In this document: piece after piece, positions 1,922-31,807 of the stretch | Layout: each line of letters opens with the position of its first letter | Position numbering within the stretch: the stretch's first letter is position 1 | From: Thermodesulfobacteriota bacterium | GTDB lineage: Bacteria; Desulfobacterota; BSN033; UBA1163 | Length of the DNA stretch: 64,000 nucleotides | NCBI GenBank assembly: GCA_049513055.1 | Contig: JBEKWN010000001.1 | Span: forward strand, 25,120 to 89,119 | Reading direction: 5' to 3' | Position numbers and translations under genes: made by a program | The notes under the pieces: generated by a model | The model's input: only the letters and a program-made list of their open reading frames with translations | What the model was told of the DNA's origin: nothing | The model's database searches: none

Positions 1922-2000
1922 GGTGACTGCGATGCTTCATTCGTGGAACATATCTATCGAACAAATCCGGGATGGCCACCGAATTGGAAAAGAGGGTTCG

Positions 2001-3482: not shown

Positions 3483-3525
3483 GTATCAGCAGTCTATTGA
3501 GAGATTAGGCTGCCAACGAGCAAGG

Positions 3526-3855: not shown

Positions 3856-3913
3856 AGCGGTTTCCTTGTGGATATACACCACCAAAAGGATTTGGAAAAT
3901 AAGGAACTACAAA

Positions 3914-4165
3914 ATGAAATTTAATAAATCCCGTCCTGATGGTGCAAATAGCTTGAAGTTGATCTTTCGTGTACTATCCCATAAAAATTATCGTCTCTTC
4001 TTTGGCGGACAAAGTATTTCTCTGATTGGCACCTGGATGCAACAAATTGCCCTGAATTGGCTGGTATACCGGTTGACCGATTCAGCCTTATTATTAGGTG
4101 TTGTTGGCTTCATAAGTCGAATCCCAACAGTCTCCAACCAATACCATAAAGGAGAGTGGGAATAA
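3914..4165 (+). pseudogene. N-terminal fragment of an MFS transporter (EntS-like), truncated after ~75 aa
   Basis: MKFNKSRPDGANSLKLIFRVLSHKNYRLFFGGQSISLIGTWMQQIALNWLVYRL is a typical MFS TM1 region; ORF ends after 84 aa with no further TM segments. Confidence 0.5.
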
Positions 4166-7014: not shown

Positions 7015-7932
7015 TTATGAAGTGGCCATGGCACTTGGCAGGACCGATTCTTTTTTTAACTCCTTCACCATTTTCAGAAAGGCTTGGCTCGGAGGGGAGA
7101 GAGATTTTTCACCATGGTAAATGATATCGGTAAAGAAAATAATGTTACCCTCTTCAATGGGTATGACTTTTAAGGTCCCCTCCTCCAGTTCCTCCTTGAT
7201 ATCGGGTTCAAACATGAAAGACACCCCTTTGTTCTGCTTCACATAGCCCACAATAAAGTCCAGACTGCTTGCTTCAATAATCACCGATGGCCAGATCCCA
7301 TATTCCTGAAATTTTCTCAGAATGGCCGTTCTGGAACCAGACCCCTTCTCCCTCAAAATTACCGGTTCACCATTCAATTCTCTCAGGGAGATACTCTTTC
7401 GTTGTGAAAACCTATGTTCTGGCGAAGCAACCAGAACAAACTCTACCGTTGAGAAAAAGATGGATTTGATTTTTCGGTCAAGGTTCAGTTGGGAGATAAG
7501 GGCAAGTTCATTCTTCTTCTCAAGGACACTCTTCGCCATATCCTCAGAGTTCCCTTCATCCAAAATCACTTTGATGCGCGGGAATCTCCTTTGAAACTCG
7601 GAGAGCAAGGAAGGCATGATGTAACGAGCATAATTTTTCGTTGTTCCAATTTGAAGCGTTCCTCTCATCAATTTCTTGAAGTCCCTCATTTTCTCATTGG
7701 CATCAGACACGAGATCAAAAATCTTCTCAGCATACTGGTAGAGGAGCTCTCCCGCTTCGGTCAACTGCATTCTTTTCCCTACTTGTTGAATGAGTTTCAA
7801 ATTCAACGACTTTTCCAAGGATTTGACCTGGATGGTGACAGCAGGTTGGGTCACATTCAACTCTTCTGCTGCGCGAGTAAAACTTTTTTTCTTTATAACT
7901 AAATAAAATGCCTCCAGTTGTCTGAGATTCAA
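7015..7932 (-). CDS. LysR-family transcriptional regulator
   Basis: N-terminal HTH MNLRQLEAFYLVIKKKSFTRAAEELNVTQPAVTIQVKSLE, C-terminal substrate-binding domain; TTG start with AGGAGG RBS; divergent from the oxidoreductase operon. Confidence 0.9.
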   Translation of the reverse strand: MNLRQLEAFYLVIKKKSFTRAAEELNVTQPAVTIQVKSLEKSLNLKLIQQVGKRMQLTEAGELLYQYAEKIFDLVSDANEKMRDFKKLMRGTLQIGTTKNYARYIMPSLLSEFQRRFPRIKVILDEGNSEDMAKSVLEKKNELALISQLNLDRKIKSIFFSTVEFVLVASPEHRFSQRKSISLRELNGEPVILREKGSGSRTAILRKFQEYGIWPSVIIEASSLDFIVGYVKQNKGVSFMFEPDIKEELEEGTLKVIPIEEGNIIFFTDIIYHGEKSLSPPSQAFLKMVKELKKESVLPSAMATS

Positions 7933-8319
7933 AAAATCCTCCTAAAAAAATATTGTTTCATCTATGTTGTAATATTAGCGATGTGCTGTAAAATACCATT
8001 TCACTGTCACTCTCTCGGAAGCGGGAGTCCACAATAGGTTGGAAAAACTGGATTCCTGCTTTCCCAAGAATGAAATCTTAAATTTAAGAAAGAAATTTTC
8101 AACAACTGCAGAGGGTAGAATCCCGTTAAGCAGGGCCCTTTAGGCGACTTAAGTCGCCCCTACCCATATTTAGAGTAATAATTTTTACCATTCATCTTCT
8201 ATCTAATATACTTCTCTTGTACTTTGAATTCACAATATTAATGCTTCAAAACCTTTTGAAATATATATGATTTCTGAATTATTATAAGTTTTTTTTATGG
8301 TATTATAAGAATAATTGTA

Positions 8320-8348
8320 TTGACATGTCAATACTGAAAAATATAGTT
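8320..8348 (+). promoter_or_regulatory. Candidate sigma70-type promoter (-35 TTGACA 8320-8325, 17-nt spacer, -10 TATAGT 8343-8348); -35 embedded in 12-bp palindrome TTGACATGTCAA
   Basis: Sequence read directly in the AT-rich LysR/oxidoreductase divergent intergenic region. Confidence 0.3.
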
Positions 8349-8407: not shown

Positions 8408-10024
8408 ATGCCCCAATATGATGGCATTATTATTGGTGGTGGGCCGAATGGACTCACTTTAGGTTGCTACCTTGCCAAAGCAGGGCTAAAGATCCTGATC
8501 CTAGAAAAGAGATACGAAATGGGAGGAGGCCTTTGCTCGGAGATGATTACGATCCCTGGATTTATTCACAATACCCATGCGATCTACCATCCCATGGTGG
8601 ATTATGCACCGGTCTTTCCCGATCTCCAATTGGATCAAACGTATGATCTAAAATATATCCATCCTGAGGTCGTCATGGCCATGCCCTTCTTAGACGGAAG
8701 GAGTCTCTGCATTTACTCTGATGTGGAGAAAACATGCGCTTCATTTGCACAATTTTCTAAAAAAGACGCTGATGCTTATCGAGAGACCTATGAACGCTTC
8801 AAACGCTATACTGATGCCTTTCTCGCACCCGCGACCTATGTGATGGCCAAGCCAGCTTTCGAACAGGTCGTGAAACTCCATTCCAGTCCTCTTGGCCAGG
8901 AAATCAGCGCCCTTTCTGAAAAGAAACCAATCGATATCGTCCATAGCATTTTTGAAAATAATCAAATCAGGACACTAATGCTCTATGCCACCTGTCTGTG
9001 GGGATTGGATTATGATCTGGAGGGGCTGGGTTACCTGGTTCCACTCATGATCAATCGAGCTTCCAACTACCGTCTCTGTGTGGGAGGCTCTCACCATATG
9101 GCAAACCTGATGTCCAAATTCCTTTATAGAAATGGAGGAATGATACTTGGAAGTCAAATCATTAAAAGAATCATTGTGGATAAAGGTGTTGCAAAAGGGG
9201 TTGAATTAGATGATGGAACGGTCTACGAGGCCACTAAGTTTGTTGCCTCAAGCATTGACCACCACCAGACCTTCCTCAAATATATTGGAGAGAAGGATTT
9301 ACCAAAAGATCTTGTCATACGGACAAAGGACTGGAAGTGGGAGAAATGGTCCCTCTTCGATACCCATCTGGCCCTTTTCAATCCACCCCAGTTCACAGCT
9401 GCCTCTTCAAATCCTGACCTCCCAAAGGCTTTTATCTATGTGGTCGGTTTTGAGACAGAGGAGAATCTGATTGAGCATTTCAAGGCTTTGAAAAATGGAG
9501 AGCTTAAATCTTCCGGGTTTAATTGTTGTTTTCCAACATTCTTTGATCCCTCCGAGGCACCTCCGGGAAGGCATACCGGGCTGATCTCAGAACATGCCCC
9601 TTACCGCCTTAAGGACGGAGGCCCTGAGAAATGGTATAAAATCCGTCAGGAACACGCGAAGCAAAACATTAACATACTCAAAAAATATGCTCCTAATATG
9701 ACTGAAGAAAATATCCTCTGGACCTATATCGCCTCCCCACTCGATATCGAAAATAAGTTCTCTGATATGGTTGAAGGATCGATCAAGCAAGGAGGTTATT
9801 TTCCTCTTCAAATGGGATTTCTAAGACCGAACGAATTATGTTCTCAGTACGCGACACCTATTAAAAACCTCTATCTCTGCGGAGCCTGTTGCTTCCCTGG
9901 AGGATTGGTCACTTACGGCCCGGGATATAATGCAGCCAACCGGATTGCAGAAGATCTCGGGATCCAAAAGTGGTGGAAGGAACCGGAGATCGTAACCCAG
10001 GCAAAGGCAAAAGGTCTTTTATGA
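8408..10024 (+). CDS. FAD/NAD(P)-dependent oxidoreductase, phytoene-desaturase (CrtI)/amine-oxidase superfamily (paralog 1)
   Basis: N-terminal dinucleotide-binding motif [31 protein letters not shown], ~540 aa, strong RBS. Confidence 0.8.
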
Positions 10025-10087
10025 GGTTTCTGAAAAACTCTTTATCAGAAACCTCATAGAGATTTCTGGACTTTTTTCAGAAATCTC
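10023..10087 (+). terminator. Two tandem hairpins after the oxidoreductase stop: GAGGTTTCTGA-N11-TCAGAAACCTC and GAGATTTCTG-N9-CAGAAATCTC followed by TTTT, immediately before the next RBS
   Basis: Perfect 11-bp and 10-bp inverted repeats read directly; second followed by T-run. Confidence 0.4.
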
Positions 10088-10104
10088 TTTTCAGGAGGTT
10101 CACC

Positions 10105-10338
10105 ATGAAAGTCAATTCGACAGGTTTGGGCCAGACCACCATGATTGCGTCCTTTACTCAACTCTTTAAAGATCCAGACGGAGGGGAGGCCCTGAAATTA
10201 AAAATCGAGTCTTCAGAACCCATCCACTGGGTCATCACTGCCACCCTGGAAGGAGCGGACCTGAGGAACTTCATCAAGCTCCTCTTAAAACCCTCTATCC
10301 TCTATTACGCCATTTCACTGATGATGAAGAAGAAATAG
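10105..10338 (+). CDS. Small hypothetical protein (77 aa) between the two oxidoreductase paralogs
   Basis: AGGAGG RBS 7 nt upstream of ATG; no family recognised. Confidence 0.4.
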   Translation: MKVNSTGLGQTTMIASFTQLFKDPDGGEALKLKIESSEPIHWVITATLEGADLRNFIKLLLKPSILYYAISLMMKKK

Positions 10339-10353
10339 AAAAGGAGGAAACCC

Positions 10354-12018
10354 ATGCCAGATACAAGTTATGATGCGATTATCGTTGGTGGGGGACACCA
10401 CGGGACGATCATTGCCTGTTATTTACAACATGCAGGCCTTAAAACAGTGATCTTCGAACGTCAACATGAATTAGGAGGAGGTGCCTGTGGGGAAGAGCTT
10501 CCCTTGCCCGGATTTATCCAGAATACATGTGCCCACTTCACCCGATTCTGGACCCATCCTGCCTATACCGATTTCAATCTGAGGGAATATGGCTTGAAAT
10601 ATATTTTCCCAGACCAGAACGAAGGTATGGTTTATCCAGATGGGACCTGTTTTGTCGGGTATTCTGCGTTCCGTGTCGACCCTTTAACGGGGAAAGAAGA
10701 GTACTCCGAGGAAAATGTCAAGAAGACCTACAACGAGATCGCCCGCTTCTCAAAAACGGACGCAGAGACCTATCTCGATCTCCTGGGAAAATATCAGAGA
10801 AAGTGGAGGGCTGCCTTTCGAGAATACCGTTATAGTCCTCCCACACCCTGGGGAGTTAAGAATGCCCTCGAAAAGCTCTGCGATGATCCCGTAGACGGAA
10901 TCGATCCGGTTTATCAATTCATGACAGGTTCCCAGATCGCTATGGACCTTTTTGAAAGTCCTGAACTCCAGTGTCTTTTCATGAGAGCTATTGAAACCTC
11001 CACTGGCTGCTTCCCTGGGGATGTCATTGGTCTCTATGTCTTTGTCCATGTGATCGGGCTCACCCTCTCCTTTGAATCGGCTTCTATTGTCTATGGTGGA
11101 ACTCATACTATCACACACGCCCTCCAGAGAGCCTTCAGTGCCATGGGAGGGGAGTTCTGTGTGGAGACAGAAATAGATAAAGTAATCATTGAGAATGGAA
11201 GGGCCAAAGGGGTCAAACTCTCGAATGGAATAGAAGTCGAAGCAAAACAGGTGGTGATTAGTGATTTAGGAGTTCCCCAGACGATATTCAGGCTTTTGGG
11301 AGAAAATTATGTCACCCCAAAAGTGGCCAGGCGTATAAGAAACATCCGTTATGACCGTGCCCAGATTTACTGGGGAAATATGGCAATGCATGAGCTTCCA
11401 AAATATAAAGCAGCTTCCTTCAATTCAGATATAGGTCTTCAGCCGCGGCTCTATATGGGAGAGAAGGACCCTGAATACCTCTCCTGGAAATATCAGGCAG
11501 ACATCTTCACAAAAGGGTTTCCTGAAAAATGGTACATCCTTGCAGCCCCGGACAGTATCTGGGACAAGACCCGGGCACCGGAAGGGAAACACACCATTCT
11601 ATTAGAAGAATTTGCGCCTCCATTACACCTCTATAACGAGAAACAGTGGCTCAAAATGAAAAAAGAGGTGGAAGATTTGATGTTGAAGCAATGGCAGATC
11701 TACGCTCCCAACATGACTCGTGACAATGTGATCGAGGCCTTTATCACCACGCCTTATGATACAAACATGAGACATCCCGATATGATCGAGGGCGGGTGGG
11801 TAGAAGGAGCCATGATTGCTTCCCAAAACGACCGATTCAGACCTATCCCAGACCTTTCGAGTTATCGTATTCCTTTCCTTAAAAATATGTACATCTGCTC
11901 CTCCAACATGCATTCTGGTGGTGGTATTGCTCGAGGCTCCAGTTATAATTGCTTCAAGGTCATTGTAGAAGACTTCAAGCTGGACAAGATCTGGGAGAAG
12001 AAAGGAAGAACTTATTAA
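10354..12018 (+). CDS. FAD/NAD(P)-dependent oxidoreductase, CrtI/amine-oxidase superfamily (paralog 2)
   Basis: YDAIIVGGGHHGTIIACYLQHAGLKTVIFERQHELGGG dinucleotide-binding motif; same overall architecture as 8408-10024. Confidence 0.8.
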   Translation: MPDTSYDAIIVGGGHHGTIIACYLQHAGLKTVIFERQHELGGGACGEELPLPGFIQNTCAHFTRFWTHPAYTDFNLREYGLKYIFPDQNEGMVYPDGTCFVGYSAFRVDPLTGKEEYSEENVKKTYNEIARFSKTDAETYLDLLGKYQRKWRAAFREYRYSPPTPWGVKNALEKLCDDPVDGIDPVYQFMTGSQIAMDLFESPELQCLFMRAIETSTGCFPGDVIGLYVFVHVIGLTLSFESASIVYGGTHTITHALQRAFSAMGGEFCVETEIDKVIIENGRAKGVKLSNGIEVEAKQVVISDLGVPQTIFRLLGENYVTPKVARRIRNIRYDRAQIYWGNMAMHELPKYKAASFNSDIGLQPRLYMGEKDPEYLSWKYQADIFTKGFPEKWYILAAPDSIWDKTRAPEGKHTILLEEFAPPLHLYNEKQWLKMKKEVEDLMLKQWQIYAPNMTRDNVIEAFITTPYDTNMRHPDMIEGGWVEGAMIASQNDRFRPIPDLSSYRIPFLKNMYICSSNMHSGGGIARGSSYNCFKVIVEDFKLDKIWEKKGRTY

Positions 12019-12031: not shown

Positions 12032-12785
12032 CATGAGACTCAAAGATAAAGTGGCAATCGTGACAGGGGCCGCCAAGGGCTTGGGAAGGGAATTCTCCAT
12101 TGGTATGGCAAAAGAGGGGGCCAAGATCATGGCAGTTACCCGAAAGGATCTTGCCAATTTGGAGAAGACGGTAAAGGAGATTGAAGCCTCTGGAGGAGTG
12201 GCGAAAGCTTTCCAGGCAGATGTCTCCATCGAAAAGGATGCCATCAAGATCGCTGAGGAAACATTTAGGGTCTTTGGCAGGATCGACATCTTAGTTAATT
12301 GCGCAGCCATCTACGATGGATTGGTTCGAAAATCCTTCACGGAAGTAGATCCCAATGAATGGGACCAGGTGATGGCTGTGAACGTCAAAGGTCCCTGGCT
12401 CTGCTCAAGGGCGGTATTCCCTTATATGAAACAACAAGGAAAAGGGAAGATTGTCAACCTCTCTTCCGAAGTATTTTTCACGGGGTCTCATGGCTTTATT
12501 CACTACGTGTCTTCAAAGGGAGGGGTGATCGGATTGACGCGAGCCCTTGCCATTGAATTAGGCCCTCATAACATTAACATTAATGCCGTAGCCCCGGGAT
12601 TTACGGATACAGAAGCAAGCCGCCATCTCACCGATGTCACCAAATACGATGTCTCTAAAACCCCCTTGAAGCGACTGGAGCAGCCCAATGATCTTCTGGG
12701 AGCGGTCATCTTCCTCGCATCAAATGAAAGCGATTTCATCACTGGTCAGACCATTTTGGTCGATGGCGGGAGGGCCATGCATTAA
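12032..12785 (+). CDS. Short-chain dehydrogenase/reductase (SDR, FabG-like)
   Basis: TGAAKGLG cofactor motif, YxxxK active-site pattern, ~250 aa, GAGGAGG RBS. Confidence 0.85.
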
Positions 12786-13022: not shown

Positions 13023-15662
13023 ATGCAGGAGATAAATTTCATCTTGAATGGAGCCCCTCGAAGAGTCATCGTTGATCCTCAAAAAAGTTTGCTGAAAGTG
13101 ATTCGAGAAGATCTAAGGTTGACAGGTACTAAGGAAGCATGCTCTGCCGGTCATTGCGGCACCTGTGCTGTGCTAGTGGATGGTGAAGTGGTTCTCGCCT
13201 GTAGATATCCTGTGGCCAAAGTCCAGGGCAAAGAGGTAACGACCATCGAAGGCATTGGCACTCTCAGGAATCCTCATCCACTTCAATTGGCCTTTGCAAA
13301 GACGGGAGCCATTCAGTGTGGCTTTTGCACACCGGGGATGATCGTCCGGACGAAGTCCCTTTTGGATGGAAATCCTAAGCCCAAAAGGGAAGAGATCAAA
13401 AAGGCTATTCAGCCTCATCTTTGTCGTTGTACGGGCTACCAGAAGATCTTTGAGGCTGTAGAACTCGCTGCCTCTTATATGCGAGGGGAAACGAAATCAA
13501 TTGAATTAAAATTAGAAGGAAAGGACACCATTGGCCAACCCGTGACACGAAAGGACGCCCTCGAGAAGGCAACAGGAACCATCCTCTATGCGGGTGACCT
13601 CACTGTGGACGGATGTGCCCATATCAAAGTTCTGAGAAGTCCTCATCACCATGCCAAAATCTTACACATCGACAAGACCGAAGCAGAAACCATACCCGGT
13701 GTGTTAGCCGTGCTCACAGCTGAGGATGTGAAAGGGACCAACATCCTGAAGATGGCTGGAGATGATCAACCCATCTTAGGCGTGGGTAAGGTCCGTTTCA
13801 TCGGTGATCCTGTCGCAGCAGTTGTGGCAACCTCTGAGGAAATTGCTTCTCATGCCATAGAGAAGATCGAGGTGACCTATGAACCCTTAGAACCAATACT
13901 TACCCCAGAGGAGGCATTGAAAGAGGGGGCGATAAGGGTCCATGACGATCGTTCAAACCTCTTTTTTGAACAACCCATCATCCATGGCGACGTTGAAAGG
14001 GGTTTTTCAGAGTCGGAGGTAGCCATTGAGCGAACCTACACAACACAAACCGTTGAACATGCCTACTTAGAAAACGACTCCGGCGTTGCTTTTATCCACG
14101 AAAATGGCCAACTGGTCATCCTATCCCCAAGTCAGAACATTCACGCTCACCGCAAGACCATCGCAGAAGCCCTCGGTCTCAATGTGGAAAAGGTCCGGGT
14201 GATCCAAACTCCCATGGGCGGGGCATTTGGCGGAAAACTGGATGTTTCCGTAGGTGGAATCCTTGGACTGGCTGCCTTGAAGCTTAAAAGGCCGGTGAAG
14301 CTTGCCTATACGAGGAGTGAAACCTTTGCGGCTACCCCAAAACGTCACCCCTTCTTCATGAAGGTGAAAGTGGGGGCCAAAAAAGACGGAACGTTGATGG
14401 CATTAGATTTTGATCTCACAGCAGATGGCGGGGCATATAAGTCTTTTAGCAATAGTGTGACTCAACGAGGCCTTATCCATTCCCAGGGACCTTACCGATT
14501 CACCAATGCCCATGTCTACGGGAAAGCTGTTTATACGAATACAGCTTTCAAAGGTGCGATGAGAGGTTTTGGCGTACCCCAAGTCGCCTTTGCCATTGAG
14601 TCGATCCTTGATGAACTGGCATCGGAACTGAAAATAGATCCCTTAGCCATAAGGGTGAAAAACGGTTTTGTGAAAGGGGATACGACAATCTGCGGCCAGG
14701 TATTAGACCACGCTATTGGTTTTCGGGAGTGTATGGAGACCCTAAAGCCTCTTTATGAGAAAGCATTAAAAGAGGCTAAAAAGAGCACAACGGATGAGAT
14801 CAAAAGGGGAGTGGGTTTAGGAGGGGTTTGGTTCGGTCCGGGCCGAAGCGCCCCAGATCAATCTGAGGCATGGGCAGAACTTTTACCTGATGACACCTTA
14901 CAGGTTTGGATCGGAGCAGCGGACATGGGACAAGGTACGGACACGATGTTCTGGCAAATTGCTACAGACACAATAGGATTTCCCCTGGAGAGAGTCAAAG
15001 TCTGTACAACAGATACTGAGATCACACCGGACGGAAACTTTTCCGCTGGAAGCCGGCAGACCTATGTCTCAGGGAGAGCCGTCCAGATGGCCGTGGAAGA
15101 ATTGAAAAAGGCCATGGATGAAAACGGTGTTAAGACGTATAGCGAGATGAAGGCAAAGGGCTTGCCTACTCTTTATAAAGCAATCAACAAACCTGTGACT
15201 TCGAGGCCTGATCCGAAGACTGGCCAGGGAGTTCCTTGGGAGACCTATTCTTTCGGAATCCAAATGGCTGAAGTGGCTGTGGAAGTAAAAACGGGTAGGG
15301 TGAATGTCCTCAAGATAATCTCTGTCCATGATCTCGGAACTGTGATCAATCGCCTCAATGTAGAGGGCCAACTCCACGGAGGCATCTGTATGGGTCTTGG
15401 ATATGCCCTCATGGAAGAGTTTATTTACAATAAGACCGATAGCTTTGCCAAATTTAAGATACCTAGAGCGAAAGACATGCCTGACATGGAAGTGATCACC
15501 CTCAATATCCCCAGGAAGAAAGGACCCTTTGGTGCTTCCGGCACCGCAGAATATGCAGATGTCCCAACTGCACCGGCTATTGCAAATGCTATCTACAATG
15601 CCTGTGGTGTCCGTATCCGGGATTTACCGATCACTCCCGAGAAGATCAGGCAATCTCTGTAG
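13023..15662 (+). CDS. Molybdopterin aldehyde oxidoreductase of xanthine-dehydrogenase family with fused N-terminal 2x[2Fe-2S] domains, no FAD domain (D. gigas Mop-like)
   Basis: CSAGHCGTCAV plant-type and QCGFCTPG...CRCTGY second 2Fe-2S motifs, MGGAFGGK MoCo-domain motif, C-terminal catalytic Glu region; 879 aa. Confidence 0.85.
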   Translation: MQEINFILNGAPRRVIVDPQKSLLKVIREDLRLTGTKEACSAGHCGTCAVLVDGEVVLACRYPVAKVQGKEVTTIEGIGTLRNPHPLQLAFAKTGAIQCGFCTPGMIVRTKSLLDGNPKPKREEIKKAIQPHLCRCTGYQKIFEAVELAASYMRGETKSIELKLEGKDTIGQPVTRKDALEKATGTILYAGDLTVDGCAHIKVLRSPHHHAKILHIDKTEAETIPGVLAVLTAEDVKGTNILKMAGDDQPILGVGKVRFIGDPVAAVVATSEEIASHAIEKIEVTYEPLEPILTPEEALKEGAIRVHDDRSNLFFEQPIIHGDVERGFSESEVAIERTYTTQTVEHAYLENDSGVAFIHENGQLVILSPSQNIHAHRKTIAEALGLNVEKVRVIQTPMGGAFGGKLDVSVGGILGLAALKLKRPVKLAYTRSETFAATPKRHPFFMKVKVGAKKDGTLMALDFDLTADGGAYKSFSNSVTQRGLIHSQGPYRFTNAHVYGKAVYTNTAFKGAMRGFGVPQVAFAIESILDELASELKIDPLAIRVKNGFVKGDTTICGQVLDHAIGFRECMETLKPLYEKALKEAKKSTTDEIKRGVGLGGVWFGPGRSAPDQSEAWAELLPDDTLQVWIGAADMGQGTDTMFWQIATDTIGFPLERVKVCTTDTEITPDGNFSAGSRQTYVSGRAVQMAVEELKKAMDENGVKTYSEMKAKGLPTLYKAINKPVTSRPDPKTGQGVPWETYSFGIQMAEVAVEVKTGRVNVLKIISVHDLGTVINRLNVEGQLHGGICMGLGYALMEEFIYNKTDSFAKFKIPRAKDMPDMEVITLNIPRKKGPFGASGTAEYADVPTAPAIANAIYNACGVRIRDLPITPEKIRQSL

Positions 15663-16046
15663 CCTCTTTAAGGAGGGGGGGATTTTTGCAACGAAGCCAA
15701 TAGAGGTTTGATCTCTAACAAGATTATCGCTGCAATGATTTGTCGAAGTTAAAATGCAATCCAATAGCTTTCAGTATAGGGTGAATATCGGAAACTTCAT
15801 TGTGAAAATTGAAACTTAAAAAACTACTTGATTTCTTCATTTCCTGTCGGTATAGTTCTGTCTATTCGACAGGTCGTAAGCCATTTTATAACAATTTATT
15901 TTCTTAAATGAAGAGGGTCATGAATATGACCTGGTGAAAGGAGGGGGTGTGTATGGAAGGATAACCTTCATTATCAATACACCAGAGGATGGTGGGGAAT
16001 TGAGAATCTTTCAAGAGGAGTCCAATAAGCATTCAGGAGGTGAAAA

Positions 16047-17732
16047 ATGAAAATTTATGATGTGGTACCAGGATTTGAGTTTGATGAGAAGTATGATTTA
16101 GAGCAATCGCCGGCTTGGTTTCTCGACGCCACCCACTCTGTCCCCCCGTGGACACCCATGTTCGGGTGGTTCTGGATCAATTTCTGCCGACACGGAATGC
16201 AGTATGGCGCTGAGACCCTCTCCCTTCCCACTGTGAAAGGATGGGACTGGCGCTTTAAAGATGGAGGTGGCTATCTAACCCTCCTCATGGTCGATTCCGA
16301 TAAAGAAAAGGCGGAAAGGGAGAAGAAGTTTAGAGAAGCCATTAGGCCCTTTGTGGAGAATTATGATGGTCTTTGGGGTGGTTACGTTAAGGAGATCCTG
16401 AAAAGATATGATAATTTGAAAGTCCTCGACGTCAACACTGCTTCGAATATCAAACTTCTTGAAAACTTCGAGGAGGTCATCGATACTTGTCGAAGAATGT
16501 GGGAAATCCATATGCACATGATGTATGGGACTTATACGCCCTATGTCCTATTTGAGCAACTCTGCATGCAGTTGTTGAACATCGATGATACCCATCCCAC
16601 TTTCCACAAGTTAGTGGCCGGCTTTGACAACGAAAGTTTTCGAGTAGACCGTAGGCTCTGGGAGTTCTCCAAGAAAGCAAAGGATATGGGTCTTGAGAGC
16701 CTCTTCATGGGGACTCCTTCAAAACAGATGAAGGCCAAATTGGGGGAGAGTGATAAAGGAAAGAAATATTTGAAAGAGTTTGATGAATTCCTTGATAAAG
16801 AAGCCGGCTGGAGGATGGAACGAATGGCTGAGATTAATGTCCCCACCTGGCAAGAGGATCCTACCCCAGGTTTTGAAACGGTAAAGATGTATCTTAAGAA
16901 AGGTGGGGATTTCGACTTAGATAAAGACCGTAAGAAGATTGAAAAGGAAAGGAAAGATGCAGAAAAAGAGGTCTTGGCTAAGATCGCTCCCGAGCAGAAG
17001 GGTTGGTTCTCCATGCTGATGAAAGTGGCTCAGAATTGCAGCCGTTTCAGTGAGGAGCACAATCATTATCTCGATCTCTACACCCACGCGTTGATGAGAA
17101 GATCCTGTATGGGATTGGGAAATCGATTCGCTAAATGTGGAGCGATTAACCAACCCGAGGATATTTTCTTCCTCATGCCTGATGAGGTGAGAAAGGCTGG
17201 GATTAATCCTGATAAACTCAATCTCAAACCCATCGTCCAACGTCGACGGAAAGAATGGGAAGAATGGAATCAAAGAGGTAATCCCCCTGCTATCTTTAAA
17301 GAAGGGTTTACTTTGGAGCAGGCGATCGGAGGATTAGTCCAATCTCTTGATCCAATCGCCCTCAAAGTAGTGGTGGGAAGCATGCCCGTACCAAAGCCTG
17401 AACTCAAGGCAGACCTCTTGGGAACCTGCGGATCTTCAGGCATGGCGGAAGGGGTTGCTCGAGTAGTCCTCAGAGATGAAGACCTACCGACCATCCAGAA
17501 AGGAGATATTCTTGTAGCAATGAGCACTTCTCCAGCCTGGACGCCCGTGTTTAGTATGATCAGCGGGGTCGTGGTGGATAGAGGGGCGAGCCTCTCCCAT
17601 GCCGCTATTGTTGGAAGGGAGTATGGAATCCCTGTTGTGATGAATGTGTTTACCGGCACCCAGGTGATCAAGTCAGGTCAAAGGATCCGGGTAGACGGAA
17701 ACTTGGGAGCCGTTTACATCCTGGACAAATAA
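16047..17732 (+). CDS. PEP-utilising enzyme family protein with C-terminal phosphohistidine mobile domain (split pyruvate,water-dikinase-like enzyme, subunit A; phenylphosphate-synthase-alpha-like)
   Basis: C-terminal GASLSHAAIVGREYGIPVV phosphohistidine domain motif; 561 aa; translationally coupled to next gene. Confidence 0.7.
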   Translation: MKIYDVVPGFEFDEKYDLEQSPAWFLDATHSVPPWTPMFGWFWINFCRHGMQYGAETLSLPTVKGWDWRFKDGGGYLTLLMVDSDKEKAEREKKFREAIRPFVENYDGLWGGYVKEILKRYDNLKVLDVNTASNIKLLENFEEVIDTCRRMWEIHMHMMYGTYTPYVLFEQLCMQLLNIDDTHPTFHKLVAGFDNESFRVDRRLWEFSKKAKDMGLESLFMGTPSKQMKAKLGESDKGKKYLKEFDEFLDKEAGWRMERMAEINVPTWQEDPTPGFETVKMYLKKGGDFDLDKDRKKIEKERKDAEKEVLAKIAPEQKGWFSMLMKVAQNCSRFSEEHNHYLDLYTHALMRRSCMGLGNRFAKCGAINQPEDIFFLMPDEVRKAGINPDKLNLKPIVQRRRKEWEEWNQRGNPPAIFKEGFTLEQAIGGLVQSLDPIALKVVVGSMPVPKPELKADLLGTCGSSGMAEGVARVVLRDEDLPTIQKGDILVAMSTSPAWTPVFSMISGVVVDRGASLSHAAIVGREYGIPVVMNVFTGTQVIKSGQRIRVDGNLGAVYILDK

Positions 17733-17733
17733 G

Positions 17734-18789
17734 ATGCCTCCAAGAAAAACGACGCAAAATATCATCTGGTTCAAAGACTGTTCAGGGAAGAACTTTCCTC
17801 AAGTAGGGGGTAAAAATGCAAATTTAGGTGAGATGTTTAAACTCGGCCTCCGAGTCCCACCTGGATTTGCCGTCACCACGTATGCCTTTGACACTTTTAT
17901 AGAGAGAGGGAGGGTTCGAAACGAAATTGTGAGAACCCTCTCTCAAATTCCCTTTGAGGATATCAAAGCCTTGGAGGAAGCAGGTCTTCAGATTCGAGAT
18001 CTTATCGAATCTACCCCCATTCCTAAAAATATTGTTAAAGAGATCAAAGAAGCTTATAAAAAATTAGGCGACCTCTGTGGAGTGGCGGATCTCCCCGTTG
18101 CCGTCCGATCCAGTGCCACTTCCGAAGATCTGAAGACGGCCAGCTTCGCCGGACAGCATGAATCTTACCTCTGGGTTAGAGGTAAAGAGGAAGTGATCCA
18201 ACACATATTGAAATGCTGGGCAAGCCTGTTTACAAATCGTGCCATCGCTTATCGAAATCAGATCGGGTGGCCTCATGATAAAGTGACCATTAGTGTTGGA
18301 GTTCAGAAGATGGTCAATGCCAAATGTGCGGGAGTGATGTTCACGATTGATCCGGTGGTCGGAGATCCAGAGAAGATAGTCATTGAAGGCAATTGGGGAT
18401 TGGGCGAGAGCGTGGTCAAAGGAGAGGTCTCTCCAGACCACTTCCTGGTGGATAAAAAATCGCTCGAGATTTTAGAGAAGATGATCTCTCCGAAAACCCT
18501 CTGCTATGAGTTGGTAGAAGATAAGGTCATCTGTATCGAACCTACCCTCGAAAGGCAGAATGAGCCATGCATCGATGATGAAGCATTGATGGAACTGGTC
18601 CGGCTCGGTAAAATCGCAGAAGCCCATTATCAATCGGCTCAGGATTTGGAGTGGGCCATCGATGTTGATCTCCCCTTCCCTGAGAATGTTTTTCTTGTCC
18701 AGACCCGGCCCGTGACAAGTGCGGGGAAACCAAAACAGAGCAATACGGATATCATTATCGATATGATGTCCTCCCTTTTCAGAAGATAA
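17734..18789 (+). CDS. PEP synthase/pyruvate phosphate dikinase N-terminal ATP-grasp nucleotide-binding domain protein (split enzyme subunit B; phenylphosphate-synthase-beta-like)
   Basis: FPQVGGKNANLGEM motif typical of PPDK_N domain; 351 aa; start 1 nt after previous stop. Confidence 0.7.
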   Translation: MPPRKTTQNIIWFKDCSGKNFPQVGGKNANLGEMFKLGLRVPPGFAVTTYAFDTFIERGRVRNEIVRTLSQIPFEDIKALEEAGLQIRDLIESTPIPKNIVKEIKEAYKKLGDLCGVADLPVAVRSSATSEDLKTASFAGQHESYLWVRGKEEVIQHILKCWASLFTNRAIAYRNQIGWPHDKVTISVGVQKMVNAKCAGVMFTIDPVVGDPEKIVIEGNWGLGESVVKGEVSPDHFLVDKKSLEILEKMISPKTLCYELVEDKVICIEPTLERQNEPCIDDEALMELVRLGKIAEAHYQSAQDLEWAIDVDLPFPENVFLVQTRPVTSAGKPKQSNTDIIIDMMSSLFRR

Positions 18790-18836: not shown

Positions 18837-19157
18837 ATGTATGTCCGAATGACCTTTTTCAAATTAAAAATAGGCAAGATGCAGGAGTTACGCGAGACTT
18901 ACAATAAGGAGGTTGTTTTAGCTCACAAAGGCCATAAGGGAATTCGCTTCGTCCATCTCCTTGAGTCTTTAGACAATAAAGACGAAGGGATTTCTATCAC
19001 CGCATGGGATACCAAGGCAGATGTCGAGGCCTATGAGAAGAGCGGAGACTACGAAAAACTGGTTGCGAAATTCAAGGACATGTATGCCGAGGAACCGTTG
19101 CTTAAATCCTATGAGGTGACCGCCAGCTCTGATCCCATCATCCTTCGTATATTTTAA
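18837..19157 (+). CDS. ABM (antibiotic biosynthesis monooxygenase)/Dabb-fold small protein
   Basis: ~105 aa, alternating beta-alpha pattern; GGAGG RBS before ATG 18837 (ORF track start 18825 is TTG). Confidence 0.45.
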   Translation: MYVRMTFFKLKIGKMQELRETYNKEVVLAHKGHKGIRFVHLLESLDNKDEGISITAWDTKADVEAYEKSGDYEKLVAKFKDMYAEEPLLKSYEVTASSDPIILRIF

Positions 19158-19174: not shown

Positions 19175-19834
19175 ATGATCTTTTTATTTAATCAACACTG
19201 GGACATTATCCCCGGGAAAGAAGAAGAATACACAAAATTTGCCATCAATCATTACATTCCTACCATGAAAAAGATCGGTATCAATCCGGTAGGAGGATTT
19301 TATGTGGTAGTGGGGGAAGGTCCCGGGGTCATCTCGGTGGGGACAGTGGATTCGTTACAAAAACTCCAAAAGGCCATGGAAACAGAAGAGTATGAGAAGG
19401 TAACGGCTCAGGTCCAGTGTTATGTCTTCAATTATTGTAGCAGAATTCTTAAGCCCACAGGGAGGGTGAAAACAGATAAATATACGATTCAATTAAGGGT
19501 ATGGAAATTTAACCAATATTTTAATATCATCCCTGGGAAAGAGAAAGAATACTCGGAGTTTATCACAAAGGATCATCTCCCGACCATAGAAAAACTGGGT
19601 ATCAAGATGACGGGCGGATGGCAGGTAGTGGTAGGCTCTGGTCCTTATATCGTTGCAGAAGGAACCGCGACAAGTATTGTCGATATTGCCAAGGCCCTTG
19701 AAAGTGAGGAATACAAACGAATCACAAAGATATTGACATCCAAGTATGTGACTGACTATAGCAGCCGCATCCTCGCTCCAACTGGCCGTATCGAACTTCC
19801 TTATCTTCTGGAAAAAATGATGAAGGGATTTTAG
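19175..19834 (+). CDS. Protein made of two tandem ~100-aa ABM/Dabb-like repeats
   Basis: Internal duplication visible: HWDIIPGKEEEYTKF...SRILKPTGR vs YFNIIPGKEKEYSEF...SRILAPTGR. Confidence 0.5.
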   Translation: MIFLFNQHWDIIPGKEEEYTKFAINHYIPTMKKIGINPVGGFYVVVGEGPGVISVGTVDSLQKLQKAMETEEYEKVTAQVQCYVFNYCSRILKPTGRVKTDKYTIQLRVWKFNQYFNIIPGKEKEYSEFITKDHLPTIEKLGIKMTGGWQVVVGSGPYIVAEGTATSIVDIAKALESEEYKRITKILTSKYVTDYSSRILAPTGRIELPYLLEKMMKGF

Positions 19835-19865: not shown

Positions 19866-20462
19866 ATGAAACGGATTTATCAGAAAATTTTTGAGCGGGC
19901 GAAACCCTTCCTCCGTACTCGAAAAAACCTCATTCACACAAAGATTGCCCTCCGGTATGCCTTAAAGCTTCTAAATCACGAAAAAGGGGAAGAAGAAATT
20001 GCTATCCCTGCAATCATTCTTCACGATGTGGGCTGGAAGACCGTCCCTGAAAACTTACACCTGACTGCTTTTGGTCCAAACCCATCTAATCCTAAATTGG
20101 CAAGAGTTCATGAAGTAGAAGGAGCAAAAATAGCTAAAGCCATTTTGGAGAAATTACATTATCCTCCTGCAAACGTAAAAGAGATCTATCAAATCATCCA
20201 AGGACACGATTCAAGAAAAAGACCCATCTCTTGGAATGATCGAATTGTTAAGGATGCGGATAAACTGACCCGTTATTCTCGAAAGGGTATGACCATTGAT
20301 TTGGGTCGGTTCCAGGTTCCAACGGGAATTCATATCAATTTTTTAGAAGGGAAGGTCGAAGAATGGTTCCTCCTCCTCACCTCTCAGAAGTTGGCTAGAG
20401 AAGAAATAAACAGAAGAAGAAAAGAGATGATTGCAGTTGACAAAACCTCTTTGACTTTCTAA
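19866..20462 (+). CDS. HD-domain phosphohydrolase
   Basis: H...HD motif (ILHDVGW) and downstream D; 198 aa. Confidence 0.65.
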   Translation: MKRIYQKIFERAKPFLRTRKNLIHTKIALRYALKLLNHEKGEEEIAIPAIILHDVGWKTVPENLHLTAFGPNPSNPKLARVHEVEGAKIAKAILEKLHYPPANVKEIYQIIQGHDSRKRPISWNDRIVKDADKLTRYSRKGMTIDLGRFQVPTGIHINFLEGKVEEWFLLLTSQKLAREEINRRRKEMIAVDKTSLTF

Positions 20463-20478: not shown

Positions 20479-20904
20479 ATGAAAAGATTTTTGGTTGAAA
20501 TTTCAAAAGGTAGATTCAAAATTCACGGCCTTGTCCAAGAGTTGGGCCAAGACATCCTGGTTTCCATCTGGGGAGGAATCCGACCTCACATCGGTGCTGT
20601 GGGAATGGCCATCCCGAGATCCAGCTTGAAGAATCAAAAAAAGTGGAGCGCCACCTCTTCCAATTTTACTTTCGTCGGCCATAAAGAGGATACCTTGGTA
20701 AAAAAGATTTCAGAAAGGTTGGCAGCTCGATTGAGAAGAAATGTGGTGGTCACCGCAGGTGTCCACTGGGATGGGATCACTTCCAAAGAGATTAAGATTA
20801 TCCAAAATCTCACACAAAAAATATCAGACCAGATTCAAAAAAAAATCCTGTCTGCTGGCAGGCAGGGGAGAAGACAAAATGAAGACCCTAAAAAAAAGGC
20901 CTGA
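20479..20904 (+). CDS. Hypothetical protein (141 aa)
   Basis: ORF in operon context; family not recognised. Confidence 0.35.
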   Translation: MKRFLVEISKGRFKIHGLVQELGQDILVSIWGGIRPHIGAVGMAIPRSSLKNQKKWSATSSNFTFVGHKEDTLVKKISERLAARLRRNVVVTAGVHWDGITSKEIKIIQNLTQKISDQIQKKILSAGRQGRRQNEDPKKKA

Positions 20905-22228
20905 TTTCTACTGGAATCCGATTGTGGAGACTCTCCCATTGGAAAGATTGAGAGAACTTCAGGCCAGAAAATTTAAAAAAATTCTGGAGTGGGCTTACGA
21001 GAGATCAAAGTTTCATCGAAAGCTTTATCAGGAGGCAGGGCTTGAACCGGGTGATATCAAATCCTATGAAGATATAGCCAAAGTGCCTAAGGTGGAAAAG
21101 TCAATGATGAGAGATATCCAGAGAAAGGATCCCTTCCCTTATGGAGATGCTCTCTGTGTTCCTTTGGAAGAGGTCACGGAATTTCGGCAGACCAGTGGAA
21201 CAACCGGAACTCCAGTCTATCAACCTGATACCTGGCAGGACTGGGAATGGTGGTCTGAATCCTGGGCTTACCTCCTCTATGCACAAGGTTATCGAAAAAC
21301 GGACCGAGTATTCCTTCCCTTCGGATATAATATTTTTGTCGCCTTCTGGGCAGGTCATTATGCGGCTGAAAAGATCGGTTGTGAAGTCGTCCCAGGCGGA
21401 GTCCTCGATACAGAGGCTCGTATTCTTAAAATCCAGGAACTTCGGGCCACCGCCATGATGGCCACCCCGACTTATGTATTAGGAATGGCCGATACCGCTA
21501 AGAAGAAGCTGGGCATTGATCCAGCTCGAGATCTCACCATCAGAAAGATCACCTGCGCAGGCGAGCCAGGTGCAAGCATTCCATCTACCAAGCAGAGAAT
21601 GGAAGAGGCCTGGGGGGCGAAGGTCTATGATCATGTGGGGGCTACAGAGATCGGGGCTTGGGGCTTTGAATGCACGGCCCAACCCGGCGGCCTTCATGTC
21701 AACGAAGCCCTCTTTCTCACTCAGTTAGAGGATATTGAAACAGGAGAGATGATTGAAGAACCGGGGCGAAAGGGGAAGATTGTCATTACCGCCCTTGACC
21801 GGATCGCCCAGCCCTGCATTCGATTCGACTCCAAGGATGTGGCAGAATGGTCGAAAGAACCCTGTCCCTGTGGAAGAACATTCCGCATCATTCAGGGAGG
21901 GGTCGTTGGAAGGGCAGATGACATTACAAAAATCAAAGGTGTTTTGCTCGCTCCTTCAGCCATTGAAGAAGTGGTTCGCTCTATTAAATGGCTGAGTAAT
22001 GAATTTGAGGCGGTGGTCACGAAGAAAGGAGATCTTGACGACATCACACTCAAGATCGAAATTTTACCAGGAGAGGAAAAAAATCGTGAGGCCATCCTCA
22101 CCCAACTGAAGGATCAACTACGATTAAAAACGAACCTGGGTTACAACATCGAAGTTCATCCATTCAATTCCTTGCCTCGTTACGAGGTGAAGGCCAAACG
22201 ATTTAAAGATCTGCGGAAACATGGATAG
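20879..22228 (+). CDS. Phenylacetate-CoA ligase (PaaK)/coenzyme F390 synthetase family adenylate-forming enzyme
   Basis: N-terminal PaaK-type region (YWNPIVETLPLERLRELQ...), AMP-binding core TSGTTGTP; start taken at ATG 20879 rather than upstream ORF-track start. Confidence 0.75.
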   Translation: MKTLKKRPDFYWNPIVETLPLERLRELQARKFKKILEWAYERSKFHRKLYQEAGLEPGDIKSYEDIAKVPKVEKSMMRDIQRKDPFPYGDALCVPLEEVTEFRQTSGTTGTPVYQPDTWQDWEWWSESWAYLLYAQGYRKTDRVFLPFGYNIFVAFWAGHYAAEKIGCEVVPGGVLDTEARILKIQELRATAMMATPTYVLGMADTAKKKLGIDPARDLTIRKITCAGEPGASIPSTKQRMEEAWGAKVYDHVGATEIGAWGFECTAQPGGLHVNEALFLTQLEDIETGEMIEEPGRKGKIVITALDRIAQPCIRFDSKDVAEWSKEPCPCGRTFRIIQGGVVGRADDITKIKGVLLAPSAIEEVVRSIKWLSNEFEAVVTKKGDLDDITLKIEILPGEEKNREAILTQLKDQLRLKTNLGYNIEVHPFNSLPRYEVKAKRFKDLRKHG

Positions 22229-22242: not shown

Positions 22243-22422
22243 ATGAACCGAAGAGAAATAAGGAAAATCGATACACGAATCAAAGTGATCAAGAAAGCGG
22301 CTCAAGAACTAAAAGAACTCTCGGCCGGGATACCAGCCATCGACCGGAACACAGTACGAATCCTTGCATCGGTGAAGATGCTGGAGATTAACATCAGTGA
22401 TGTGAAAGATCTAGTCTAAAAG
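22243..22422 (+). CDS. Small hypothetical protein (59 aa)
   Basis: Uninterrupted ORF MNRREIRKIDTRIKVIKKAAQELKELSAGIPAIDRNTVRILASVKMLEINISDVKDLV below ORF-track cutoff. Confidence 0.3.
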
Positions 22423-30423: not shown

Positions 30424-30429
30424 GTTCCT

Positions 30430-31770: not shown

Positions 31771-31780
31771 TTTACTCTTT

Positions 31781-31804: not shown

Positions 31805-31807
31805 TTT

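Follow-up and report, generated by a model that had tools for sequence, protein, structure and literature searches.

A two-component dikinase of the PpsAB/CreHI/HpeHI kind, outside the PpsA/HpeH subfamily, and its conserved gene module in Thermodesulfobacteriota

Several phenolic compounds are known to be activated by two-component dikinases. For example, PpsAB acts on phenol, CreHI on 4-cresol, and HpeHI/AcvAB on 4-hydroxyacetophenone and acetovanillone (PMC12167813). In these enzymes the histidine of the swivel domain is pyrophosphorylated and loses the gamma-phosphate, after which the beta-phosphate is passed to the phenolic hydroxyl, yielding AMP and inorganic phosphate (Pi) (PMC12167813). 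The subfamily was recognised between 2022 and 2025, with four systems characterised. Here we report on a pair of open reading frames, ORF1 and ORF2, in a stretch of 64,000 nucleotides from a Thermodesulfobacteriota bacterium (assembly GCA_049513055.1, contig JBEKWN010000001.1, positions 25,120 to 89,119 of the forward strand), which is called the window below. The pair is a small-molecule dikinase with two components, like PpsAB, CreHI and HpeHI, and its sequences make it very probable that it forms AMP and Pi while phosphorylating the hydroxyl of a small molecule other than pyruvate. This kind of enzyme is known; the clade to which ORF1 belongs lies outside the recognised subfamily, and this clade, its third protein partner and the surrounding gene module are undescribed in the searchable literature. 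The two genes are as follows.

16047..17732, plus strand: ORF1 (DikA), large dikinase subunit, 561 aa, 64.3 kDa, with PF00391 and PF27448.
17734..18789, plus strand: ORF2 (DikB), stand-alone ATP-grasp subunit of 'type II', 351 aa, 39.3 kDa, with PF01326.

Pfam scans placed the PEP-utilizers swivel domain (PF00391) at residues 483-554 of ORF1 (E 4.7e-22) and the PPDK_N domain (PF01326) across residues 23-337 of ORF2 (E 3.6e-108); the precomputed annotation added PF27448 (Rph_4th) to ORF1. The original prediction, made from the sequence alone, had given the upstream protein a phosphohistidine mobile domain and the downstream one an ATP-grasp domain, and both were confirmed together with their motifs: GASLSHAAIVGREYG occupies residues 513-527 of ORF1 and holds His518, and GGKNANLGE occupies residues 25-33 of ORF2. 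Its sizes of about 63 and 39 kDa were also close to the computed ones. His518 was invariant across 26 clade members and aligned with the catalytic His of PpsA; in a protein of 561 residues it lies within about 50 residues of the C-terminus, as in two-component dikinases. A set of Trp, His and Cys residues of ORF1 (W24, H30, W35, W41, W43, C47, H49, H155, H338, H340, H347) is also clade-invariant and would line its pocket. Ahead of the swivel domain, residues ~1-440 of ORF1 correspond to the helical substrate-binding domain of rifampin phosphotransferase (RPH). ORF1 is thus built like the large component of such enzymes, from an RPH-like substrate domain and a swivel domain, and ORF2 is the separate ATP-grasp component that is homologous to RPH and to phosphoenolpyruvate (PEP) synthase.

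ORF1 is preceded by a strong ribosome-binding site (AGGAGG, 6 nt upstream), and the junction between the two genes reads TAA-G-ATG. The pair had been described as translationally coupled; the 1-nt gap is compatible with coupling, but a gap alone is no proof of it. Conservation of the arrangement was followed in a neighbourhood census, in which window and reference proteins were compared by tblastn with 80 loci related to ORF1, 42 of them flanked by 9 kb or more on each side (the full-flank set). The two-gene dikinase layout was found in 73 of the 80 loci. This recurrence, together with a downstream ATP-grasp gene where fused enzymes have the opposite order, excludes an assembly error or a frameshift as the origin of the split. 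Upstream of ORF1 there is a 385-nt non-coding gap (15663-16046), at the site of a DUF89/ARMT1-like gene in the close relative L019. A terminator-like hairpin (15663-15681) opens the gap, and its conservation with locus L017 is 80% over 304 nt. No Rfam match to a riboswitch or other RNA element was obtained in this leader, and a remnant of the ARMT1-like gene was considered and rejected, the evidence being two unconvincing matches of 11-12 residues (E 0.12).

The pair had been called a split PEP-synthase-like enzyme. This name did not hold: neither protein has a PEP/pyruvate domain and the large subunit is RPH-like, so that 'split PEP synthase' is a misnomer. In a PDB search, residues 232-560 of ORF1 aligned with the rifampin-binding and swivel parts of RPH (5hv1/5fbs, E 3e-25). 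An AlphaFold2 model of ORF1, built from 26 clade members, reached a pTM of 0.75 with an N-domain pLDDT of ~85 and a badly modelled swivel domain, and with this model Foldseek returned RPH as the sole full-length structural match (E 4.5e-15, TM ~0.5). RPH is likewise the full-length structural relative of HpeH (PMC12167813). The PDB matches of ORF2 were HpeI (9goj, E 4.5e-63), which is the ATP-binding component of the hydroxyphenylethanone dikinase HpeHI, followed by RPH (5hv6, E 8e-58) and the ATP-grasp domains of PEP synthases. A PEP synthase, recently split or degenerate but still making PEP, might seem to be suggested by ORF2, whose top NCBIfam matches are PEP synthase models (369 bits) and which is 37% identical to the N-domain of the E. 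coli enzyme, and also by databases, where many homologues are named 'pyruvate, water dikinase'. However, the PEP/pyruvate-binding TIM barrel (PF02896) was not found in ORF1, ORF2 or the neighbouring genes by Pfam and NCBIfam scans, and against the PEP synthase model TIGR01418 (cutoff 739.75 bits) ORF1 and ORF2 scored 78 and 361 bits, both far below. Furthermore, the order of the parts is reversed relative to single-polypeptide PEP synthase (ATP-grasp, swivel, TIM barrel), and the regulatory Thr of PEP synthase (GGxT[S/C]H, at -2 from the His) is replaced by Leu (G513-A-S-L516-S-H518). With the split old and conserved in at least 73 loci and the clade monophyletic, the idea of a recent division of a true pyruvate,water dikinase is effectively refuted.

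We next compare ORF1 with its functional relatives. It aligned with PpsA of Azoarcus over the full length at 27% identity and is ~50 residues shorter; ORF2 was 49% identical to PpsB. The PpsA equivalog model NF006152 (cutoff 723) gave 164 bits for ORF1 and 1300 for Azoarcus PpsA. The PpsA/HpeH subfamily model NF006153 (cutoff 578) gave 244 bits for ORF1, against 809 for PpsA, 784 for an HpeH orthologue (L094) and 802 for a 631-aa protein from another anaerobe (L093), which this model places in the PpsA subfamily. The phylogeny against PpsA that the original prediction had proposed as a check led to the same separation: in a neighbour-joining tree of 117 sequences the ORF1 clade was monophyletic in 100/100 bootstraps and stood apart from the PpsA/HpeH clade, also 100/100. 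When 1.84 billion cluster representatives were searched exhaustively, 808 clusters fell below E 1e-30, the best with 50% identity; these stand-alone proteins of ~550-570 aa make up a very large family, and PpsA-like proteins of ~610 aa appeared only near the tail of the list. Judged from these sequence comparisons, ORF1 belongs to a distinct, uncharacterised clade outside the PpsA/HpeH subfamily. CreH is a member of that subfamily, with ~45% mutual identity (PMC12167813), and ORF1 is set outside it by way of this description of the subfamily, not by alignment with the CreH sequence.

Homologues of ORF1 with 64-99% identity occurred in 207 stretches of species-representative genomes, nearly all of them metagenome-assembled genomes (MAGs) of Thermodesulfobacteriota: Syntrophorhabdus, Desulfomonilaceae, Syntrophales, Desulfobacterales and Desulfatiglandales. 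They came from soils, peat, sediments, groundwater, lakes and digesters. There were two cultured carriers. Syntrophorhabdus aromaticivorans UI has two copies of DikA and a 37%-identical paralogue (L021, L083), and the betaproteobacterium Georgfuchsia toluolica G5G6 (L096) has a DikA of 64% identity. Their loci are NZ_KI867150.1, 2.590-2.612 Mb, and CAJQUM010000001.1, 1.210-1.231 Mb, respectively. In strain UI the paralogue (571 aa, L021 6965-8680) sits inside the module beside a single DikB, and the orphan copy (L083) has no other module genes within 10 kb, just a UPF0261 homologue. The best homologue of ORF1 on a plasmid, at 28% identity, was in Thermomicrobium roseum (NC_011961.1, L010). Its cluster holds cyclase, FAH, ABM, UPF0261 and PEP-hydrolase genes and a three-subunit Mo enzyme of the XDH family, which is another uncharacterised context of a dikinase.

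The ATP-grasp subunit has a history of its own. At least two types of DikB were distinguished, each monophyletic in 200/200 bootstraps and exclusive sisters in 0/200. Type II, to which the DikB of the window belongs (350-351 aa), shares 47-52% identity with PpsB and with the L093 protein's partner, and only 40-44% with type I; it was confined to the DikA sub-clade that is at least 89% identical to the window, where it abuts DikA with the 1-nt gap. Loci L018 and L019 (DikA 84-85% identical) and nearly all others have type I, and L026 and L038 have a third B type. Among the loci examined, type I spacers were longer: 8 nt in L019 and ~90-190 nt in L005 and L008. These patterns indicate that the window lineage recently exchanged its ATP-grasp partner for a PpsB-like one, which explains why ORF2 resembles the beta subunit of phenylphosphate synthase while ORF1 is unlike PpsA, and which shows that the ATP-grasp module is exchangeable. 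The window lineage is also without the DUF89 gene that L019 has between the MOP gene and DikA. Elsewhere, locus L091 carries two tandem stand-alone PPDK_N genes (8766-11050; 355 and 349 aa, the second 73% identical to ORF2), with no large dikinase subunit found within 10 kb.

The layout of ORF1 and ORF2, with the alpha (His) subunit gene before the beta (ATP-grasp) gene, is that of ppsA-ppsB, as the original prediction had pointed out and as it occurs in the canonical phenol cluster on an Azoarcus sp. KH32C plasmid (L009: ppsA, ppsB, CBS-type ppsC, ppcBDAG, UbiD, UbiX). Could the pair be a divergent but genuine phenylphosphate synthase, with its carboxylase encoded elsewhere in the genome? The gene order, the identity of ORF2 to PpsB, the annotation of some ORF2 relatives as phenylphosphate synthase beta, and phenol degradation by both cultured carriers would be in its favour. 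However, the distance of ORF1 from PpsA described above, far under both model cutoffs and in a separate clade, argues against it, and so does the restriction of the PpsB-like subunit, a recent replacement, to the window lineage. UbiD, UbiX and CBS-type PpsC were not found among the called genes of the window by Pfam scans, in agreement, for UbiD and PpsC, with what had been predicted, and among the related loci UbiD/Ppc occurred in 1/80, UbiX in 0/80 and a PpsC-like match, ~7 kb away, in 5/80. Conserved genes for alcohol and aldehyde oxidation, described below, would moreover be useless in the carboxylation of phenol. We therefore regard a phenylphosphate synthase as improbable. The missing carboxylase is in itself not unusual, since several two-component dikinases without UbiD are already characterised: CreHI and HpeHI/AcvAB operate without such a carboxylase (PMC12167813, PMC9618137). 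An HpeHI orthologue is encoded on a Rhodococcus plasmid, and its small subunit is nearly the same as PDB 9GOJ. The original prediction of a PpsA/PpsB-like layout that is not coupled to a UbiD carboxylase, and hence of a different substrate, is supported; of the two options that it offered a hydroxyl is favoured, and a carboxyl has no specific support.

The more informative part of the locus, which the original prediction passed over, is the conserved module around the dikinase. In the window it consists of the following genes.

7015..7932, minus strand: LysR-type regulator, divergent, with HTH_1 and LysR_substrate domains.
8408..10024, plus strand: FAD1, flavoprotein subunit of the CtmAB/sterol delta24-desaturase type, 538 aa, with GFIHNTHA at residues 51-58.
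10105..10338, plus strand: small protein of 77 aa between FAD1 and FAD2 (called gene).
10354..12018, plus strand: FAD2, constant and presumably catalytic flavoprotein, 554 aa (NCBIfam CrtO, 1.9e-45).
12033..12785, plus strand: short-chain dehydrogenase/reductase (SDR), putative alcohol dehydrogenase, 250 aa (Pfam adh_short_C2, 1.5e-59).
13023..15662, plus strand: molybdopterin aldehyde oxidoreductase of the MOP type with fused 2Fe-2S domains, 879 aa (NF045668, 824 bits).
18849..19157, plus strand: small alpha+beta-barrel protein of the ABM family (PF03992).
19175..19834, plus strand: tandem dimeric alpha+beta-barrel protein, 219 aa (25 kDa), a near-constant partner downstream of DikB (AlphaFold2).
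19866..20462, plus strand: HD-domain phosphohydrolase, candidate dephosphorylating enzyme (PF01966).
20479..20904, plus strand: LpdD-like/PAC_bac small protein, lineage-specific accessory (PF21758, 2.4e-34; 3/80 loci).
20879..22228, plus strand: PaaK-like aryl-carboxylate-CoA ligase, accessory (TIGR02155, 239 bits, below cutoff).

Within the full-flank set, DikB was present in 40/42 loci, the 219-aa protein and FAD2 in 39/42 each, the SDR in 38/42, a MOP or AFOR (aldehyde ferredoxin oxidoreductase) gene in 37/42, an HD or DUF89/ARMT1-like phosphohydrolase in 36/42, LysR in 32/42 and ABM in 25/42. FAD1 had homology hits in 38/42, and a true FAD1 gene remained in 30/42 after cross-hits to FAD2 were resolved. 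The PaaK-like ligase was found in 13/80 loci, strain UI among them. An adjacent ABC transporter (at most 6/80 loci) and the LpdD-like gene were rejected as module parts because they are lineage-specific; the latter family is usually tied to UbiD-type decarboxylases, yet UbiD was not found nearby, and the last 26 nt of the gene are shared with the beginning of the PaaK-like gene. Directly after the ligase there is an ORF of 58-59 aa in both the window (22243-22419) and Syntrophorhabdus (L006 13839-14018). Promoter-like sites were seen at 8256-8347. Scans for consensus promoters and terminators gave counts near those of shuffled sequence, with a modest excess of promoters (30 vs 20.1 ± 3.9) and none of terminators (18 vs 16.6 ± 4.4), and are weak hints. 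A UPF0261 gene (Tm-1-like ATP-binding, window 5577-6857) adjoins three different clades of two-component dikinases: 20/42 loci of the window clade, T. roseum (L010 445-1683), and the PpsA-subfamily pair of L093 (8963-10231 and 16684-17901).

The two flavoproteins resemble an anaerobic C-H-oxidising system. FAD2 belongs to a CtmAB-like, phytoene-desaturase-like family, with a weak full-length PDB match to CrtI/CrtD, and is 57% identical to its Georgfuchsia orthologue. FAD1 and FAD2 are 28% identical to each other, and their sizes and identity fit the paralogous subunit pattern of CtmAB and sterol delta24-desaturase: CtmA and CtmB (CDM25290, CDM25289) have 565 and 549 aa and are 27% identical, and alcohol dehydrogenase, aldehyde dehydrogenase and CoA ligase come after them in their pathway (PMC4109377). 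A covalent-flavin consensus, G-F-L/R-x-N/S-T/L-H-A, is common to limonene dehydrogenase CtmAB and sterol delta24-desaturase (PMC11061730), and GFIHNTHA of FAD1 matches it. A tblastn search of FAD2 against plasmids was uninformative, giving only generic 'FAD-dependent oxidoreductase' annotations at 26-28% identity. The partners of FAD2 alternated. FAD1 together with FAD2 and without electron-transferring flavoprotein (ETF) was found in 29/42 loci, FAD2 alone with ETF/EMO in 9/42, both in one and neither in three. The alternative to FAD1 is thus ETF with an EMO-like membrane oxidoreductase. The small protein between the flavoprotein genes, of 77-140 aa across loci, accompanies FAD1 exclusively (24 of 30 loci having FAD1, 0 of 12 lacking it). 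Since FAD1 and ETF/EMO replace each other, FAD2 appears to be the constant catalytic unit, with electrons going toward quinone and the reaction running in the oxidative direction.

A similar alternation marks the next step. Among the 80 loci, the aldehyde slot held MOP only in 24, tungsten AFOR only in 34 and both in one. In Georgfuchsia it is filled by an NAD-type Aldedh; the close relative L092 (DikA 94% identical) has AFOR, differently placed. The filling of this slot by three non-homologous enzymes argues for aldehyde oxidation as an integral part of the pathway. The same observation bears on another role for the dikinase, as a helper of the Mo enzyme, in which it would phosphorylate a hydroxylated (hetero)aromatic for a Mo hydroxylase, as with 3-hydroxypyridine dehydrogenase HpdA. 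There is a precedent in Ensifer HP1, where PEP-utilising and PPDK-like proteins are essential for HpdA activity (bioRxiv 10.1101/2020.01.08.898148), and the Mo enzyme gene of the window directly precedes ORF1, while the Thermomicrobium homologue adjoins an XDH-family enzyme. However, the Mo enzyme of the window best matches MOP-type aldehyde oxidoreductases, and most loci swap it for AFOR or NAD Aldedh, which points to aldehyde oxidation and not to ring hydroxylation. Since W and NAD aldehyde dehydrogenases can stand in for the Mo enzyme in this clade, a Mo hydroxylase is unlikely to be a specific partner of the dikinase, and we give this role little credence.

The third protein of 219 aa was modelled by AlphaFold2 with a pLDDT of 91 as two ferredoxin-like repeats. 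Foldseek matched it to ABM-like 'putative monooxygenases' and to the coproheme decarboxylase/chlorite dismutase fold. Because this ABM/dimeric alpha+beta-barrel fold is generic, it does not lead to a functional assignment. As an analogue of PpsC it was rejected, having no sequence similarity to CBS-type PpsC or to the 205-aa protein of Thermomicrobium. From its model and its constant position, it is possibly a third component or accessory subunit of the dikinase, or an enzyme acting on the phospho-intermediate.

Taken from the homologues, the phosphotransfer would run as follows. ORF2 would bind ATP, and His518 of ORF1 would take the beta-phosphate with release of AMP and Pi; the swivel domain would then dock on the RPH-like helical domain of ORF1 and hand the phosphate to the hydroxyl of a bound small molecule. 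The kinase and a candidate phosphatase lie in one operon, next to genes for a flavoenzyme that would oxidise C-H bonds, for an alcohol dehydrogenase and for an aldehyde oxidoreductase, and for this reason we propose a logic like that of the Cre pathway, in which a kinase, side-chain oxidation and a phosphatase act in turn; we put the chance that this logic applies at about even. Kinase and phosphatase are similarly paired in CreHI/CreD and HpeHI/HpeD (PMC9618137). In this scheme a transient phosphate 'handle' would be placed on the hydroxyl of an alkyl-substituted, cresol-like phenol. The CtmAB-type flavoenzyme would, without oxygen, hydroxylate or desaturate the compound at an allylic or benzylic carbon and pass the electrons to FAD1 or to ETF and quinone. 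The alkyl side chain would be oxidised anaerobically from methyl to alcohol, aldehyde and acid by the SDR and the Mo, W or NAD aldehyde oxidoreductase. Finally, the HD or DUF89 phosphatase would remove the phosphate, with an aryl-CoA ligase following in some loci. Whether the dikinase and its module as a whole form an anaerobic equivalent of the Cre pathway of Corynebacterium, by way of a transient phosphate on an alkylphenol, we rate at slightly less than an even chance.

A cresol-type alkylphenol is our tentative proposal for the substrate itself. The substrates of strain UI are phenol, p-cresol, 4-hydroxybenzoate, isophthalate and benzoate; its use of p-cresol was reportedly described in 2008. 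For Georgfuchsia G5G6 the growth substrates are confined to toluene, ethylbenzene, phenol, p-/m-cresol, benzaldehyde and 4-hydroxybenzoate (PMC9290046). Cresol was proposed because it is the sole substrate common to both carriers that joins a hydroxyl with a methyl group in need of alcohol and aldehyde oxidation. In Georgfuchsia the module adjoins a sigma-54 regulator of the XylR/V4R type, a class that typically senses aromatic effectors.

Several observations weigh against this proposal. The swivel segment of ORF1, V510-D-R-G513-A514-S-L-S-H518, departs from the published swivel consensus T/SxxGGxxxH by Val for T/S and Ala for the second Gly; the ORF1 clade retains the His and the first Gly, and PpsA reads T-D-V-G-G-V-M-S-H. 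RPH phosphorylates an aliphatic hydroxyl, so the dikinase superfamily is not confined to phenols. The likeness of FAD1 and FAD2 to CtmA and CtmB is one of family features and motif, not of direct alignment, and FAD2 reads GFIQNTCAH, with Cys at the position of the flavinylated His, which is kept in the Georgfuchsia protein (GFRQNPHAH). A phosphate on the aryl oxygen should hinder benzylic hydride abstraction, and phosphorylating first is awkward for a cationic CtmAB mechanism. HD and DUF89 proteins are candidate phosphatases, and six of the 42 full-flank loci have neither. There are only two cultured carriers, both with other possible routes for cresol. In the literature searched nothing was found on the clade, the third partner or the module, nor any biochemical, transcriptomic or proteomic link to a substrate. 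Cre genes are unmentioned in PMC13101518. Two benzene-activation clusters, one with BzS1, a VAO/PCMH-type flavoprotein (PMC13416013), and one termed ORM2 (PMC13101534), were considered and found unrelated, with no Pps-like genes.

Another possible role is in an ATP-dependent dehydration. The dikinase would phosphorylate a tertiary or secondary aliphatic alcohol of a terpenoid- or isoprenoid-like compound, and elimination of the phosphate, perhaps by the 219-aa or the ABM protein, would give an alkene whose allylic methyl group is then hydroxylated and oxidised to the acid. RPH, the sole full-length structural relative, has the corresponding aliphatic chemistry, and alpha+beta-barrel proteins could serve as lyases. 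In Sterolibacterium, phosphorylation and elimination do come before the allylic hydroxylation, the oxidation of alcohol and aldehyde, and the ligation to CoA (PMC7411048), and the characterised CtmAB-family enzymes act at allylic positions of terpenes and sterols (PMC4109377, PMC11061730). However, the steroid kinase gives mainly ADP and is not known as a dikinase (PMC7411048), and the characterised two-component relatives all act on phenolic hydroxyls (PMC12167813). A phosphatase, found as HD or DUF89 in most full-flank loci, would be superfluous when the phosphate is eliminated. Furthermore, Georgfuchsia G5G6 grows on monoaromatics only and not on cholesterol, and the regulator beside its module belongs to a class that typically senses aromatics. 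Dehydration is consequently unlikely in our view, although it is the alternative we take most seriously.

The dikinase might also act last, phosphorylating the phenolic hydroxyl of a hydroxy-aryl acid or its CoA ester as the leaving group for a reductive dehydroxylation, in place of the Mo-dependent 4-hydroxybenzoyl-CoA reductase. Such an order avoids methyl oxidation on an aryl phosphate, strictly anaerobic hosts must lose the para-hydroxyl before ring reduction, and a CoA ligase is present in some loci. However, the idea is speculative and has no precedent, the module conserves no candidate for the reductase, and the phosphatase, which is conserved, would counteract the kinase; both this order and the replacement of the reductase are very unlikely. 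None of these alternatives accounts for the full set of conserved neighbours as well as the transient phosphorylation of an alkylphenol does.

The clade occurs in more than 200 species-level genomes, mostly of strictly anaerobic Thermodesulfobacteriota, and within a coherent catabolic module. If the alkylphenol route holds, it would be a new activation strategy for anaerobic aromatic degradation, and it is conceivable, if doubtful, that the module represents a third, unrecognised and widespread anaerobic strategy for cresols and alkylphenols beside p-cresol methylhydroxylase and fumarate addition. It could then supply enzymes for the anaerobic oxidation of the methyl group of m-cresol, and would give a function to many genes labelled 'PEP-utilizing enzyme' or 'pyruvate, water dikinase', labels that inflate the apparent gluconeogenic capacity in MAG-based metabolic reconstructions. 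The Mo/W/NAD oxidoreductases, FAD1 and ETF, HD and DUF89, and the two ATP-grasp types illustrate non-orthologous displacement within one pathway. The two cultured carriers, S. aromaticivorans UI and G. toluolica G5G6, make the hypothesis directly testable.

Two further regions of the window may be mentioned. Positions 1-4000, with AcrB/OEP efflux genes, have a GC content of 0.55-0.56 vs 0.43-0.48 in the rest, so that horizontal acquisition or an assembly join is possible. On the minus strand, 29437-43806 encodes multihaem cytochromes, NHL and YNCE beta-propellers and large proteins without domain matches, beside a sigma-54 two-component system (44250-47198); the run of genes is a possible locus for extracellular electron transfer.

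Compared with known systems, the window pair resembles PpsABC of Thauera, Aromatoleum and Azoarcus in having the large subunit first and the ATP-grasp subunit second, in the aligned catalytic His with a Ser before it, and in its association with anaerobic degraders of aromatics. It differs in that the third protein of PpsABC is the CBS-domain protein PpsC, whereas that of the window is a tandem alpha+beta-barrel protein, and in that PpsABC is tied to PpcABCD, UbiD and UbiX, whereas the window dikinase is tied to flavoenzyme, alcohol dehydrogenase, aldehyde oxidoreductase and phosphatase genes. RPH (PDB 5HV1, 5FBS) shares the three functional domains and the His phospho-relay; however, it is one polypeptide with an N-terminal ATP-grasp domain, ~18% identical to ORF1, and acts in antibiotic resistance on a large macrocycle. 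The HpdA system of Ensifer adhaerens HP1 also associates PEP-utilising and PPDK_N proteins with a Mo enzyme for a hydroxylated aromatic. HpeHI/AcvAB are like the window pair in their two components, RPH-like folds, the His near the C-terminus and the absence of the regulatory Thr, and in the Hpe pathway the phosphate is later taken off by a dedicated phosphatase, HpeD (PMC9618137). However, the Hpe pathway couples a biotin carboxylase to the phosphorylation, which is not conserved in the window clade, and its hosts are aerobic Actinobacteria and sphingomonads. The limonene pathway (CtmAB, GeoA, GeoB, GeoC), like the sterol delta24-desaturase, shares with the window the paired flavoproteins of ~540-565 aa, with the N-terminal flavin motif matched in FAD1, and the limonene pathway also has the downstream oxidation genes, but it has no kinase or phosphatase, and its ferredoxin system CtmEF stands where the window clade has FAD1 or ETF/EMO as the electron partner. 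The closest functional analogy for the whole module is CreHI and the Cre pathway of Corynebacterium glutamicum for 4-cresol, whose cluster likewise combines a two-component dikinase with methyl-alcohol-aldehyde-acid oxidation and a phosphohydrolase. The Cre pathway is said to be aerobic, with the P450 system CreJEF oxidising the methyl group and the phosphate carried through the oxidation and then removed. In the window module the place of the P450 would be taken by a candidate oxygen-independent, CtmAB-like flavoenzyme, followed by a Mo/W aldehyde step.

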